From: a virus
Lineage: Duplodnaviria > Heunggongvirae > Uroviricota > Caudoviricetes
Length of the DNA: 4,466 nucleotides
Reading direction: 5' to 3' (one strand)
Virus record (IMG/VR): IMGVR_UViG_2695420589_000009
Shown here one piece after another: positions 82 to 4,466 of the stretch (positions are counted from its first letter, which is position 1; the number at the start of each line of letters is the position of its first letter). Made by a program: the position numbers and the translations under genes. Under the pieces are notes generated by a model, which had not been told where the DNA came from, did no database searches, and worked only from the letters and a program-made list of their open reading frames with translations.

Positions 82-1164
82 TTGAAAAAATTAACAGTGG
101 CAATTTCTGCTGTAGCTGCATCAGTACTGATGGCGATGTCTGCTCAGGCAGCTGAAATTTATAATAAAGACAGTAACAAGCTGGATCTGTACGGGAAAGT
201 TAATGCTAAGCACTACTTCTCCTCTAATGATGCAGATGATGGTGATACTACTTATGCCCGTCTTGGCTTCAAAGGTGAAACCCAAATCAACGATCAACTG
301 ACTGGTTTCGGTCAGTGGGAATATGAATTCAAAGGCAACCGCGCTGAATCTCAAGGTTCCTCCAAAGATAAAACCCGTCTTGCCTTCGCTGGCCTGAAAT
401 TCGGTGACTACGGCTCCATCGATTACGGCCGTAACTACGGTGTAGCATACGACATCGGTGCGTGGACTGACGTCCTGCCAGAATTCGGTGGTGACACTTG
501 GACTCAAACAGATGTGTTCATGACTGGTCGCACCACTGGTGTTGCAACTTATCGTAACAACGACTTCTTTGGTCTGGTTGATGGTCTGAACTTTGCTGCT
601 CAGTATCAGGGTAAAAATGACCGCACTGACGTAACTGAAGCTAATGGTGATGGTTTCGGTTTCTCCACTACTTATGAGTATGAAGGATTCGGTGTAGGTG
701 CAACCTATGCTAAATCTGACCGCACTAATAATCAGGTTATCTACGGTAACAACAGCCTGAATGCATCTGGTCAAAATGCTGAAGTATGGGCAGCTGGTCT
801 GAAATATGATGCGAACAACATCTATCTGGCTACCACCTATTCTGAAACCCAGAACATGACTGTTTTTGGTAATAACCATATTGCCAACAAAGCACAAAAC
901 TTCGAAGTAGTTGCACAATATCAGTTCGACTTCGGTCTGCGTCCGTCCGTTGCTTACCTGCAATCTAAAGGAAAAGACTTGGGTGCGTGGGGTGATCAGG
1001 ACCTGGTTGAATATATTGATGTAGGTGCAACCTATTACTTCAACAAAAATATGTCCACTTTTGTTGATTACAAAATCAACCTGATTGATAAGAGCGATTT
1101 CACGAAAGCATCTGGCGTTGCTACCGATGATATCGTTGCTGTAGGTATGGTTTACCAGTTCTAA
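82..1164 (+). CDS. nmpC: Outer membrane porin, OmpC/OmpF/PhoE family, prophage-encoded NmpC/Lc(OmpD)-like; start codon appears to be TTG
   Basis: 360-aa ORF with a typical signal peptide ([23 protein letters not shown], cleavage after AQA), porin motifs and the beta-barrel C-terminal ...VYQF. The sequence matches my memory of E. coli NmpC almost along its whole length. Codon 82-84 is TTG and no Shine-Dalgarno is visible within 15 nt upstream. Confidence 0.9.
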
Positions 1165-1387: not shown

Positions 1388-1771
1388 TTAATTAGAGTTA
1401 TTAACAACGATATCCATCTCTAACCGGATATCTAATGCCATTAACATCCCTTCAATTATGCCCTCAGCCTTCTGTAACCTTTTCCCGATATAACCATCAG
1501 AGCAGCAATGCTTACCTGCCAGTGACATGAATGTCATACCGACTACATAATAATCTACTAATAAATCGTGCAAATCGCTGTTGTTCTTTTTCAGACGGGC
1601 CATGCACCCGCAAATAATCATCGCGTCATCGTCACAACATTGCGGGCGAGATTTTACTTTTGAAGTAATTAATCCCTTAAAACCGGCGGCAATGGACGAC
1701 CAGGTCACATCTTCATGATTATTAGCCGCCCACGCTCCCCAACGCTCAAGAACCATCTGAATATCACGCAT
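1388..1771 (-). CDS. quuD: Late-gene antitermination protein Q (phage 82 / DLP12 QuuD type)
   Basis: Translation [35 protein letters not shown]... with the Cys-rich zinc-binding region, matching my memory of QuuD. I place the start at ATG 1771 (127 aa), which has SD GGAG 7 nt upstream, rather than the TTG at 1786 used by the ORF track. Confidence 0.9.
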
Positions 1772-1856
1772 CAACTTACTCCACAAAAATCAGACCAGAA
1801 CGCCAATTACAAGCAAAAATCAACAAAACAGTATTAGTTGATTGTTATCTCTGACT

Positions 1857-1997
1857 TCATACTCCTGCTCCTGTCAGGGTTTTGGCGTAATTCTTCAGTA
1901 TTCGGTAATCGGTCAAAACAGAACCGGGGAAACGATATAAGCGCAGATGCCCCCAGCGGTGGCGAAGAAGTTCTGCCATATAAAACTCAAACATCAT
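1857..1997 (-). CDS. ylcG: Small protein YlcG-like (46 aa), DLP12-type nin region
   Basis: Not in the ORF track (too short). My translation of the - strand gives [54 protein letters not shown] lies about 5 nt upstream. Its ATG overlaps the rusA stop (ATGA). Position between rusA and Q is as in DLP12. Confidence 0.6.
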
Positions 1998-2356
1998 TCA
2001 TTCCCCATTTCGGTGATGGTCAGTTCCAGCCTCCCACCTTTGGTAACAGGCATCTTCACAACGCGGTAATCAACGACCTGAGCATCATCCAGCCAGAAAC
2101 CTGCTTTGGTGAGTGCGTCAAAAGCGGCTTTTTGCAGATTATCCAGGTCACGGCGACGGCGATCCGGCATGTGGCACTCAATACGGATTTTCACTGGCAT
2201 AGCCAGGCCGATATCCAGCATTGCGTTTTTAATGATTCGGGTGACGTTATCGCGGTATGCCTGCCCTTCTGCGCTGATGTGTGTGCGCCCGCGATTATGG
2301 CGGTAATAGCGGTTATTGCTCGGAGGCCAGGGTAATGTGATGCTGTAGGTATTCAC
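1994..2356 (-). CDS. rusA: Crossover junction endodeoxyribonuclease RusA (Holliday junction resolvase)
   Basis: 120-aa translation [25 protein letters not shown]...LTITEMGNE matches RusA from memory. Start is GTG at 2354-2356, overlapping the ybcO stop (GTGA). Confidence 0.93.
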
Positions 2357-2643
2357 GCCTTAATAACCCCCTCTTTCAGCCAGATAACCTGCGTTCTCGC
2401 CATACCTTCCAGCGCGCATTCTTTTGCATACTCAGCATCGACAAAATATGTGCGGCGGTCGATTTCGTCGTGACAGGCAGAACATGCAATGGTGGCAATC
2501 AGGTCTGGCGGTTTGATACCGGTACCGCACAATCCAGCCAGCCGGATATGTGCCAGTACTGACGTTTCAGGATTGCCATTACATACGCCAGGGATTCTTA
2601 CCTGGCATTCCCGACCACGCGCTGCTTTTCTCAAATCAGCCAT
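2353..2643 (-). CDS. ybcO: YbcO-like (DUF1364) putative nuclease, Cys/His-rich
   Basis: Translation [64 protein letters not shown]... I place the start at ATG 2643 (96 aa), which has a strong SD AAGGAGG, rather than the upstream start at 2682 in the ORF track. Confidence 0.85.
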
Positions 2644-2806
2644 GATTCCTCCTTGCTGCCAGTCGCAACCATTTTTTATCAACCAGGCTAGCGGTATATC
2701 CGAGCAGTGTTGGTATTTCGGATGGCTTCAGCTCAGGCTTACGCTTACGACGATTTGATACTCTGTAGATGTGCCCGTTCATGACACGAATAAGCGGTGT
2801 AGCCAT
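2636..2806 (-). CDS. ninE: NinE-family protein (56 aa)
   Basis: Not in the ORF track. My translation: [56 protein letters not shown]. It is basic and Arg/Lys-rich and resembles lambda NinE (KRKP...WLR..AR). Its ATG overlaps the ybcN stop (TAATG) and its 3' end overlaps the ybcO start by 8 nt. Confidence 0.7.
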   Translation of the reverse strand: MATPLIRVMNGHIYRVSNRRKRKPELKPSEIPTLLGYTASLVDKKWLRLAARRNHG

Positions 2807-3261
2807 TACGCCTCCTGCTTATCGCGCAGCTGCTGGTATTCACAGCTCTGCGGAATTGTCAGGTGGCAGCCGATATTCATCGCCCAGGCTTCGACTTTGC
2901 ACAGGAAGATGTACATCTCGCCGGTTTCCAGCTCTGACGTATGGCGGAGGGATTGGACGGTGGTGACCTCGCCGGACACGACATCTACACGGTCTTTGCT
3001 TTCGTAGCCGAGATAGGTGTGCTTCATCGCGTCTTTGACCCACTCAGGCGTAGCGAAGGTCTTGCCGCGGGCGATGAGATATTCGCTGATCTCCGTGTAC
3101 CACATGTGGCTGAGCGCGTTCTGCGACAGGCTGCGCTTCTCGCGCCACGGCTTAACCTGCAGGCGTAAGCATTGCCCGGCATCCAGCAATGGCTGAATCT
3201 GCTGGCCGATGGCCGCGAAGTTACCGCGATGGAGTTTGATGCCGTCTACTGGCAGAGTCAT
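2806..3261 (-). CDS. ybcN: YbcN-like (DUF1367) nin-region protein
   Basis: 151-aa ORF MTLPVDGIKLHRGNFAAIGQQIQPLLDAGQCLRLQVKPWREKRSLSQNALSHMWYTEI..., with SD GGGAGG upstream of ATG 3261. Position and length match DLP12 ybcN. Confidence 0.85.
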   Translation of the reverse strand: MTLPVDGIKLHRGNFAAIGQQIQPLLDAGQCLRLQVKPWREKRSLSQNALSHMWYTEISEYLIARGKTFATPEWVKDAMKHTYLGYESKDRVDVVSGEVTTVQSLRHTSELETGEMYIFLCKVEAWAMNIGCHLTIPQSCEYQQLRDKQEA

Positions 3262-3372: not shown

Positions 3373-3483
3373 CAGAAGTCACCGGAGTTGTTCAGGCTCC
3401 GATGAGAGGATTATGGCGGATTGATTACGATAAATCAAAACTATCTTGAAGCCAAAACAGTGATCTTCGCTTTAAAAACCTTG

Positions 3484-3489
3484 TATACT
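3484..3489 (+). promoter_or_regulatory. Candidate -10 hexamer (TATACT) for the AT-rich cassette; no convincing -35
   Basis: TATACT lies 36 nt upstream of ATG 3526, preceded by TTG. The best -35-like element (TTGAAG, 3446..3451) is too far away to pair with it. Weak call. Confidence 0.2.
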
Positions 3490-3525
3490 TTCACCTAATC
3501 ACAGCCAGAACTATGGATCTAACCA

Positions 3526-3903
3526 ATGACCAACAAAGAAAACAAAGATAAATATATTAACAAGTTCAAGAAAGAGCTTTCAAAATATATACAACCAACT
3601 GCTGGAGTGGACATTCAATTATTTAACTCTAAGGATGGTGGTGGTGTAATTAAAGCCACTTTGAATAGAAGTGGAAAAAGAAAATCATCTATTGCTGGTA
3701 ATTTTACTAAATTAGGTGAGGCAATTACCTCGAGTGGGCAGAGGGTTTTTGGTGGTGATCTATCAAATGTGAATTTTTACGGAACAAATACGATTTTTGA
3801 TGGAGATACAATATTTTTAATTAAATCACCTGATTCAGAGGAGTGGTCATCACAAAAAGCTTCCAAAGACGTAGAGGGCATCGTATTTGGAGGGAAAAAA
3901 TGA
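3526..3903 (+). CDS. Hypothetical soluble protein, 125 aa, Lys-rich N-terminus and Gly-rich beta-like middle; first gene of the AT-rich cassette
   Basis: ORF in strongly AT-rich DNA with AT-biased codon usage. Only a weak SD (GGA about 8 nt upstream). No signal peptide or TM segment. Stop overlaps the start of the next ORF (ATGA). I recognise no family. Confidence 0.7.
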   Translation: MTNKENKDKYINKFKKELSKYIQPTAGVDIQLFNSKDGGGVIKATLNRSGKRKSSIAGNFTKLGEAITSSGQRVFGGDLSNVNFYGTNTIFDGDTIFLIKSPDSEEWSSQKASKDVEGIVFGGKK

Positions 3904-4328
3904 TTAACATTACTACTAAGGATGGCACTCAAGTCAGTGGTGAAGTAAGAGATCTAGTAATTCTTCTTGAAACTGATGGAAAAACGGTGTCTGATTATTT
4001 GCAGCCAATCCCTCCCAAAAAAGATACACACTGGAGCATGATTTTCATTCCGGTAGCAATTTATATACTACTTAATCTTGTATACATTATTGCTCACCCA
4101 TTATTTCCTGAAAAATATCTAAAAACATCAACATCTATATTTCTATTCATTTCCTTCATATTAAGTGCAATAGTAGCATATTTTGTTTTCCATAAGCATA
4201 AATCTGCCACTCTATCCATATGCAGCTTAGTGTTCTTAGTGTTAATTGTAGGTGCTAACGTAGGGTTTATCAGTTACAGCGACCTAACACAAAAAGCGAC
4301 GCAAAAATTAGATAGTTTGTCTAAATAA
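3900..4328 (+). CDS. Hypothetical small membrane protein, 142 aa, soluble N-terminal ~45 aa then three predicted TM helices; second gene of the AT-rich cassette
   Basis: ATG at 3900 preceded by SD GGAGGG with 5-nt spacing. Hydrophobic segments MIFIPVAIYILLNLVYIIAHPLF, SIFLFISFILSAIVAYFVF and LSICSLVFLVLIVGANVGFISY. The GTG at 3843 in the ORF track is an in-frame upstream extension that I reject. Confidence 0.75.
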   Translation: MINITTKDGTQVSGEVRDLVILLETDGKTVSDYLQPIPPKKDTHWSMIFIPVAIYILLNLVYIIAHPLFPEKYLKTSTSIFLFISFILSAIVAYFVFHKHKSATLSICSLVFLVLIVGANVGFISYSDLTQKATQKLDSLSK

Positions 4329-4335
4329 TTATGTT

Positions 4336-4356
4336 GCCATGCGAAGTATGCATGGC
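4336..4356 (+). terminator. Stem-loop GCCATGC / GAAGTAT / GCATGGC just after the cassette stop, followed by palindrome CCATTTAAAATGG (4371..4383); weak terminator candidate
   Basis: Inverted repeats are seen directly; no clean U-tract follows. Confidence 0.2.
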
Positions 4357-4435
4357 TGCATGTCTGCCTTCCATTTAAAATGGGCTAAGACCTATAACCC
4401 TAAATATTATTCTTTATTATCTTCTTTACCACTTC

Positions 4436-4466
4436 GGTGATGCTGCCAACTTACTGATTTAGTGTA
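4436..4466 (+). mobile_element. Left end (IRL) of insertion sequence IS1, truncated by the window edge
   Basis: GGTGATGCTGCCAACTTACTGATTTAGTGTA matches the IS1 left terminal inverted repeat and the following bases as I remember them. Only 31 bp are in the window. Confidence 0.7.

Follow-up and report, generated by a model that had tools for sequence, protein, structure and literature searches.

In lambda RexAB and Sbash gp30/gp31, a soluble protein has been proposed to activate a membrane ion channel (PMC6426596). Gordonia phage CarolAnn gp44/gp43 is a further named system of the RexAB-like type. A similar layout is found in the membrane-toxin toxin–antitoxin (TA) pairs GhoT/GhoS and CptA(YgfX)/CptB(SdhE). 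PanT toxins that carry transmembrane (TM) segments act by depolarising the membrane, and a cognate protein neutralises them (PMC8832971). Here we analyse a pair of genes in a 4,466-nucleotide stretch of DNA (the window) from the IMG/VR virus record IMGVR_UViG_2695420589_000009 (Caudoviricetes), which is part of a DLP12-like lambdoid prophage of Escherichia coli. The first gene encodes a soluble protein (the partner) and the second a small membrane protein, and together they form an obligate, deeply conserved module, gene order and translational coupling included, that has moved as a unit between at least four kinds of replicon. By logic and layout its closest counterparts are RexAB-type exclusion systems and membrane-toxin TA pairs, with no detectable link of ancestry to either. 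We tentatively read the pair, as a possibility a little short of an even chance, as a self-contained membrane-effector module that would be controlled by the partner and would have phage exclusion as its pay-off.

The pair shares with RexAB-type systems its prophage habitat and its two-gene arrangement, a soluble protein followed by a small polytopic membrane protein, set opposite to the lytic operons. RexB and the membrane protein here are of similar length (144 and 142 aa), whereas RexA is far longer than the partner (279 against 125 aa), and neither protein has a RexA, RexB or DUF4747 match or other detectable homology to RexA or RexB. RexB and Sbash gp31 have four TM helices (PMC6426596), whereas the protein described here has three helices and an N-terminal domain. 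Unlike RexAB, the pair does not lie beside a repressor gene, and it is found on small plasmids as well. The TA pairs offer a similar balance. Like PanT/PanA, the pair consists of a small soluble gene and then a small membrane gene in prophages and plasmids, and it is a compact bicistron with an ATGA or 17-nt overlap carried by prophages and 2.7–3.5 kb plasmids. In contrast to these pairs, there is no PanA (DUF4065), GhoS/GhoT or CptA/B match, and the candidate toxin is larger, with three helices.

Loci were gathered through exact-protein look-ups, a viral-contig scan, annotated E. coli genomes, an exhaustive hidden Markov model (HMM) search of 1.84 billion representative proteins, a profile search with the partner and a degenerate DNA pattern run against metagenomes. 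All 57 loci that carry either gene carry both as neighbours on one strand; the partner always comes first, and its stop codon nearly always overlaps the start codon of the membrane-protein gene. Enterobacterial prophage copies are 66–100% identical. Divergence is much deeper in three plasmid-borne lineages, in which the membrane protein retains 33–34% and the partner 36–49% identity, and in an environmental lineage, in which the partner retains ~31%. The environmental membrane protein (125–127 aa) matches the family profile at 26% identity over 108 columns (E 0.003) and follows the same plan, with an N-domain of ~35 residues carrying G..E(V/I)..L...G..(L/V)S(D/E)Y(L/I).KP, three helices and a short tail. 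The HMM search returned only two full-length remote relatives, fragments and one 571-aa repeat protein. A first-pass annotation of the window, made from its letters, had paired the membrane protein with the upstream 125-aa gene, a proposal that these 57 loci bear out.

The prophage copies reside in mosaic lambdoid prophages of Escherichia, Klebsiella and Enterobacter. They are flanked on one side by NinB/YbcN, DUF1367 or a pol III theta homologue, and on the other by P, by DnaB-type or DnaC-type replication modules, by Ead/Ea22 or by DndB; in every prophage locus the pair is antisense to its neighbours. In an intact relative (E. coli A7, locus L001), it stands between ybcN and the replication gene P, antisense to all surrounding genes. 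The P-to-ybcN/ninB interval is a variable cargo slot, because DLP12 of K-12 (L039 4316-8470) holds other genes at the same junction, where emrE-ylcJ-ybcK-ybcL-ybcM-ylcH run from renD to ybcN on the same strand as ybcN; in lambda the junction is occupied by ren, oriented as P. Only 48 of 5426 complete E. coli genomes contain the cassette, 46 of them at 99% identity or more and two at 72%, and the carriers include uropathogenic E. coli 536 and F11 and commercial probiotic strains. In an Enterobacteriaceae prophage (L008 5297-6980), the cassette adjoins a colicin-like gene (377 aa, weak PF01024 match) and, in the opposite orientation, a Colicin_im-like gene (174 aa, weak match), indicating that the P-to-ninB interval gathers accessory cargo.

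Outside prophages, the pair was found on small plasmids and on environmental contigs. Three circular plasmids of ~3.47 kb (L031-L033) encode a ColE2-type Rep and Rop, and in these the partner gene overlaps the 3′ end of rep; the same backbone with other cargo is common in plasmids of Klebsiella, Escherichia and Enterobacter. A circular 2.72-kb plasmid (L035), whose only sizeable coding content is the pair, is built on the Col3M (qnrD-plasmid) backbone of Proteus, Providencia and Morganella; its relatives hold in the same slot qnrD1, ParA, an Abi-family protein or a RelA/SpoT-domain protein. Direct terminal overlaps of 38–127 nt in these circular contigs (127, 127 and 38 nt in those of ~3.47 kb) indicate that the plasmids are complete. 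Another contig joins the pair to Rep and a MobC/NikA gene. The plasmid copies of the pair stay at ~35% GC even beside a rep gene of 50% GC. The pair-bearing plasmids are absent from PLSDB, where tblastn with three pair members gave no match; tblastn against 50,697 phage records likewise gave none, and the GTDB representative genomes yielded no copy by protein pattern or DNA pattern. On the environmental contigs, the few kilobases around the pair encode the C-terminus of a type IIG restriction-modification enzyme, a PIN/Phd TA pair, DUF4145 and unknown proteins, which weakly suggests a variable or defence region.

This linkage and this habitat bear on the possibility that the membrane protein is a superinfection exclusion (Sie)- or Imm-type device, which would block phage genome entry constitutively and without cell death, the partner being accessory. 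Sie proteins are small inner-membrane proteins made by resident phages, a description that suits a small prophage-encoded inner-membrane protein on the strand opposite the lytic operons. However, SieB of lambda and P22, P22 SieA, T4 Imm and HK97 gp15 are single-gene systems, and known Sie devices work as single genes, whereas here a cytoplasmic partner is obligate and invariably linked across deep divergence. There is no similarity to lambda SieB, no Pfam match and no Sie or Imm family match, and the occurrence of the pair on non-conjugative plasmids of 2.7–3.5 kb and on environmental contigs shows that it is not bound to the entry route of one phage group. A Sie mechanism based on a single protein fits poorly with an obligate pairing and a plasmid habitat, both of which make a TA or addiction reading as viable as defence. 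We consider a Sie- or Imm-type device distinctly unlikely.

The membrane-protein gene runs on the + strand for 142 codons, from the ATG at 3900 to the TAA at 4326-4328. By our own arithmetic, an open reading frame of this length would arise by chance in DNA of 34% GC with a probability of ~2e-5. A 161-aa version beginning at GTG 3843 was considered and is unsupported, as the homologues begin at the same ATG/GTG position as the 3900 start. The ratio of non-synonymous to synonymous substitution rates (dN/dS) is 0.06–0.17 against copies that are 66–72% identical, with dS saturated. The gene is real and under strong purifying selection. The proportion of non-synonymous differences (pN) is 0.06–0.10 in codons 1–36, 0.19–0.48 in the linker, 0.15–0.24 in the TM region and 0.06–0.14 in the tail. 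Constraint is thus strongest on residues 1–36 and the C-terminal tail, above that on the helices, as would be expected for interaction surfaces.

The first-pass annotation had described a small membrane protein with about 45 soluble residues, three TM helices and a short tail, and both hydropathy and structure prediction confirm this plan. Kyte-Doolittle analysis (19-residue window, threshold 1.6) places three hydrophobic segments at residues ~46–66, ~78–97 and ~104–125 after ~45 hydrophilic residues, whereas only 4.5% of same-composition shuffles contain at least three. An AlphaFold2 model built on the family alignment has helices at 44–68, 71–100 and 103–141, with a predicted local distance difference test score (pLDDT) of 85–93 in the membrane part; the N-domain is modelled as a β-hairpin and a helix with a pLDDT of only ~52. 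The three-segment plan is retained in lineages down to ~25–35% identity. Within TM1, every lineage keeps Pro51, while conservation of Asn59 and Tyr62 is confined to the enterobacterial and plasmid lineages. The N-domain of the enterobacterial family carries the motif G.xxE(V/I)..L......G..(V/L)S(D/E)Y(L/I).(K/Q)P. The 571-aa repeat protein from the HMM search (P0036) contains, at residues ~290-440, four tandem 'NVRDLVKKFENEGLTVEDYLHKACLKQ' repeats that resemble N-domain residues 12-46 (E 2.4e-5 summed), a resemblance that probably reflects a short helix-turn motif in common and not homology.

The orientation of the protein can be predicted from the charges of its loops. Loop 2 is basic in all lineages (HKHK, KKK, KKN and RFK), loop 1 is neutral or acidic in 7/7 enterobacterial, Proteeae and plasmid lineages, and the distant lineage has an acidic C-terminal tail. 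Judged by the positive-inside rule only, these features favour an N-in arrangement with loop 1 out, loop 2 in and the C-terminus out. The cytoplasmic N-domain and positive-inside topology proposed earlier from the residues flanking the helices are upheld by this comparison across lineages, and the two motifs on which the proposal drew are present as quoted (KKDTHWS at residues 40–46 and HKHKSAT at 98–104).

A holin or lysis-timing protein of the prophage would also be a small phage-borne protein with three hydrophobic helices, as is the class I holin S105 of lambda. The setting and the predicted topology nevertheless separate the two. The prophage has lysis genes of its own, essD-rrrD-Rz (holin, endolysin and Rz/Rz1), which in L001 lie ~4.5 kb from the pair, beyond Q and the porin gene and on the other strand, and the membrane-protein gene is antisense to the late and early-right operons. 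Lambda S is oriented N-out/C-in, opposite to the prediction here, and holins of its type have a very short N-terminus and a charged C-tail in the cytoplasm, whereas the present protein has a 45-residue N-domain and also a partner gene. Neither Pfam nor PHROGs gave a holin match, an alignment with lambda S by hhalign reached a probability of 1.2%, and the pair occurs on plasmids without lysis genes. A lysis function, which the first-pass annotation had already disfavoured because of the distance from the lysis cassette, is effectively excluded.

The partner is lysine-rich and hydrophilic (grand average of hydropathy −0.62) and is itself under selection, with a dN/dS of 0.08–0.13. A low-confidence model gives it an N-terminal amphipathic helix, two β-hairpins and a C-terminal helix, with an invariant GG (residues 39–40) in a predicted β-turn. 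The ATGA stop/start overlap that couples it to the membrane-protein gene is present in nearly all lineages, and in the ColE2-type plasmids the overlap is 17 nt. In every lineage the N-domain of the membrane protein is acidic (isoelectric point (pI) 4.5–5.8) and the partner is basic (pI 9.0–9.8). A 127-aa protein on a 1.1-kb contig (P0030) matches the first 38% of the partner at 100% identity and continues into pentapeptide-repeat domains; it is possibly a chimera.

These properties of the partner weigh on whether it could be a microcin-like released toxin, with the membrane protein as its immunity protein, comparable to those against E1-type pore-forming colicins or class II microcins. Small enterobacterial plasmids are the classical home of bacteriocin-immunity pairs, immunity proteins of the E1 type are small three-helix membrane proteins, the partner has a conserved GG, and a colicin-like gene and an immunity-like gene stand beside the cassette in L008. 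The GG, however, lies inside a predicted β-turn rather than in an N-terminal double-glycine leader, and the hydrophilic, lysine-rich partner has no export signal and no hydrophobic segment. None of the loci links the pair to an exporter or lysis gene, the membrane protein has no Colicin_im match, and a bacteriocin system would leave its conserved cytoplasmic N-domain without a role. We judge this explanation very improbable.

Family searches placed both proteins in existing catalogues of sequence. In PHROGs, the membrane protein matches PHROG 16940 over residues 1–142 of 142 (E 2.3e-96) and the partner PHROG 18061 over residues 1–125 of 125 (E 9.3e-85), both of unknown function. Pfam gave no above-threshold match for either protein; the sub-threshold matches, such as 7TMR-DISM_7TM at 21 bits against a cut-off of 29, are driven by TM composition. 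NCBIfam gave no match for either, PADLOC-DB v2.0.0 returned zero families at E ≤ 1 for either, and profiles of both proteins found nothing below E 0.3 among PDB sequences. For the membrane protein, fold searches retrieved nothing but helical bundles of a generic kind; for the partner, whose model is of low confidence, they gave equally generic α/β sandwiches. The hhalign probabilities were 2.3% for lambda RexB, 0.3% for RexA and 0.1% for SieB. The description of the protein's architecture as typical of Sie, Imm or Abi families is not borne out, as PADLOC, Pfam and NCBIfam gave no match and the SieB and RexB alignments were negative. A label of ‘VIT1/CCC1 family Fe2+/Mn2+ transporter’, attached by JGI to a relative (P0009), lacks Pfam support at E ≤ 0.1. 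Both proteins are thus already catalogued, in PHROGs and as ‘hypothetical protein’ in RefSeq, and are uncharacterised; PHROGs record neither the pairing nor the plasmid and environmental relatives.

We adopt as a working model for the pair the proposed logic by which a soluble factor controls a membrane channel (PMC6426596). A regulated membrane effector is the simplest model for the pairing, the translational coupling, the pattern of constraint, the complementary charges and the repeated capture by different elements. We infer the topology, the contact between partner and N-domain, the membrane damage and the biological pay-off as follows. The protein would insert into the inner membrane in an N-in/C-out orientation, and its three helices, probably as an oligomer, would compromise the membrane through an ion leak, depolarisation or a pore. 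The acidic cytoplasmic N-domain would serve as the handle for control by the co-translated basic partner, which could act as a sensor or activator responding to infection, by the logic of RexA and RexB, or as a restraining antitoxin, by that of the membrane-toxin TA pairs. The carrier would gain abortive-infection-type exclusion of other phages, post-segregational retention, or both. An exclusion or defence role, which the first-pass annotation favoured, is plausible from context only, namely an antisense insert of low GC content in a variable cargo site and mobility across unrelated elements. Whether the pair founds an unrecognised family of two-component membrane-acting conflict modules, serving abortive infection, addiction or both, is more doubtful than probable. 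We hold with the same reserve the specific form that such a module might take, in which the small basic partner in the cytoplasm would gate an effector made up of a mini-domain and three helices, all within ~0.95 kb.

Natural alleles provide some indication of which component is costly. Three independent single-base frameshift alleles were found in the membrane-protein gene, and in each the partner is intact. One converts the A6GA tract to A9 (L042/L043 3116-3125) and was found in different samples, two or three overall; the other two delete a G in codon 9 and a C near codon 53 (L025 ~8000 and L029 ~8161). Since the frameshifts fall in the membrane-protein gene while the partner stays intact, the pattern weakly suggests that the membrane protein is the costly part. 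The partner is also the better conserved of the two (49% against 34% and 76% against 66% identity), and among the 57 loci it is disrupted only once, in E. coli CV839-06 (L002 6247-6944), where IS1 lies inside it and the membrane-protein gene is intact.

The same observations cut both ways for a pure addiction system, in which the membrane protein would be a depolarising toxin, the partner a labile antitoxin, and cells that lose the element would die. A soluble gene placed first, an overlap and genes of this size are typical of TA operons, and protein antitoxins for membrane-acting toxins exist (PMC8832971). A 2.7-kb plasmid has no sizeable cargo other than the pair, which in plasmids of 3.5 kb lies in the rep operon, and the frameshifts prefer the gene that would encode the toxin while leaving the partner intact. 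In contrast, a viable strain has an IS1-disrupted partner with an intact membrane-protein gene, the partner has, unusually for an antitoxin, diverged less than the putative toxin, and Pfam and NCBIfam gave no TA family match. Antisense placement in a variable prophage site is, moreover, more typical of lysogenic-conversion or defence cargo. Addiction as the sole function is an unlikely explanation. As to the sign of the partner's control, the comparative data lean slightly both ways; within the model of a partner-controlled effector, the disrupted partner and its higher conservation fit a sensor better than a labile antitoxin.

Several observations weigh against the partner-controlled effector. 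Sequence, profile and fold comparisons link neither protein to any defence, TA, Sie or holin family, and the two RefSeq accessions appear neither in the literature searched nor in the supplementary data of two E. coli defence screens, DefensePredictor and the selection by Vassallo et al. The strain with the IS1-disrupted partner argues against an indispensable antitoxin, unless the IS1 is polar, and the frameshift alleles may in part be sequencing errors. The polar intramembrane residues Asn59 and Asn120 would suit a channel, and are not conserved in the distant lineage; the idea that they line one was dropped for this reason. The defence-island association of that lineage is thin. A consensus scan found no sigma-70 site upstream of 3526 and no −35 element was recognised there, so that any expression in the lysogen is putative. 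Finally, both genes are annotated and intact in 47 of the 48 E. coli carriers, with no strong sign of cost.

This last observation would suit a non-toxic accessory function in lysogenic conversion, with the membrane protein as an anchored regulator or adaptor, or as a stress or transport factor. The same site in DLP12 of K-12 carries emrE, ybcL and ybcM, and Pfam and PADLOC detect no toxic or defence domain in the pair. Against this, a 142-aa protein with three helices belongs to no recognisable transporter or sensor family, and to be taken up again and again by phages and minimal plasmids is more in keeping with selfish or defensive cargo. We regard a function outside genetic conflict as rather unlikely.

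Table 1 Features of the window, in order of position
Feature	Position	Strand	Description
OmpC/NmpC-type porin gene	82-1164	+	
quuD	1388-1786	-	
ylcG	1857-1997	-	
rusA	1994-2356	-	
ybcO	2353-2682	-	
ninE	2636-2806	-	
ybcN	2806-3261	-	NinB-like
Cassette-specific upstream region	3441-3525	+	presumed promoter/leader; -10-like TATACT at 3484-3489, 36 nt before the ATG
Partner gene	3526-3903	+	first gene of the pair; 125 aa, soluble, basic (pI 9.5), no hydrophobic segment; PHROG 18061
Coupling junction	3888-3903	+	GGAGGG Shine-Dalgarno at 3888-3893 inside the 3′ end of the partner gene, then ATGA stop/start overlap
Membrane-protein gene	3900-4328	+	second gene of the pair; 142 aa, inner membrane; PHROG 16940
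Acidic N-domain	3900-4034	+	codons 1-45, pI 4.9, predicted cytoplasmic; residues 37-45 form a variable linker
A6-G-A tract	4017-4024	+	codons 40-42; site of the A9 frameshift allele, 58-aa product
TM1	4035-4097	+	residues ~46-66
TM2	4131-4190	+	residues ~78-97
Loop 2, HKHKSA	4191-4208	+	short, basic in every lineage; predicted cytoplasmic
TM3, GANVG motif	4209-4274	+	residues ~104-125; Gly122 kept in all lineages
C-terminal tail YSDLTQKATQKLDSLSK	4275-4325	+	17 residues; helical extension in the model; predicted periplasmic
Hairpin GCCATGC-N7-GCATGGC	4336-4356	.	7 nt past the stop codon; conserved with the cassette

The cassette has its own boundaries and flanking signals (Table 1). We place the left end of the insert at ~3440 because homology to the backbone (ybcN and a ylcH-like region), present in 2778 E. 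coli genomes, ends there and only 50 genomes run past it. GC content falls from ~0.50–0.58 to ~0.35 over the adjoining upstream region, and the cassette as a whole has a GC content of 0.34 against 0.50 for the nin genes. We infer a promoter function for this upstream region; in copies of the Klebsiella/Enterobacter type, a shared TGATATAGTAT(A/G)A motif occupies the equivalent place.

The hairpin downstream of the pair has a stem that is invariant in the window and in L001, L003, L008 and L009, while its loop and flanks vary. Longer hairpins in Klebsiella and Enterobacter (L003 8430-8465 and L009 8435-8459) score as intrinsic terminators on the minus strand, in the sense of the phage early-right transcript; the copy in the window was not flagged. 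The hairpin is likely a transcript end or terminator and may shield the cassette from antisense read-through, in a position comparable to that of lambda tR2. Plasmid copies have a classical stem and T-run terminator in its place. Rfam gave no match in the window or in the pair-bearing plasmids.

At its right end, the window stops within an insertion sequence. Positions 4437-4466 are the IS1 terminal inverted repeat (GGTGATGCTGCCAACTTACTGATTTAGTGTA), which is identical to the end of an annotated IS1A in L002, with the junction at 4436/4437. The 3′ end of the replication gene P is interrupted there, leaving ~10 codons in the window (4407-4436, minus strand), and because of this interruption the window's copy of the prophage is probably replication-defective. 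Between the porin gene and quuD is a run of 36 N (1301-1336), absent from the otherwise near-identical L001, that is either a masked stretch or an assembly gap.

Prophages commonly encode small membrane proteins, new candidate pairs for defence or TA are no rarity either, and nothing here runs counter to expectation; if the pair is inert, it would be another prophage-borne membrane protein of unknown function. If it is a defence or addiction system, it would represent a very compact family without homology to known ones, and an architecture consisting of a cytoplasmic handle of 36 residues, three helices and a controller of 125 aa would lend itself readily to dissection. Its presence in well-studied strains (536, F11 and the probiotics) makes it an immediately testable candidate. 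The pair would then also illustrate how the same cargo traffics between the cargo sites of prophages and minimal plasmids.

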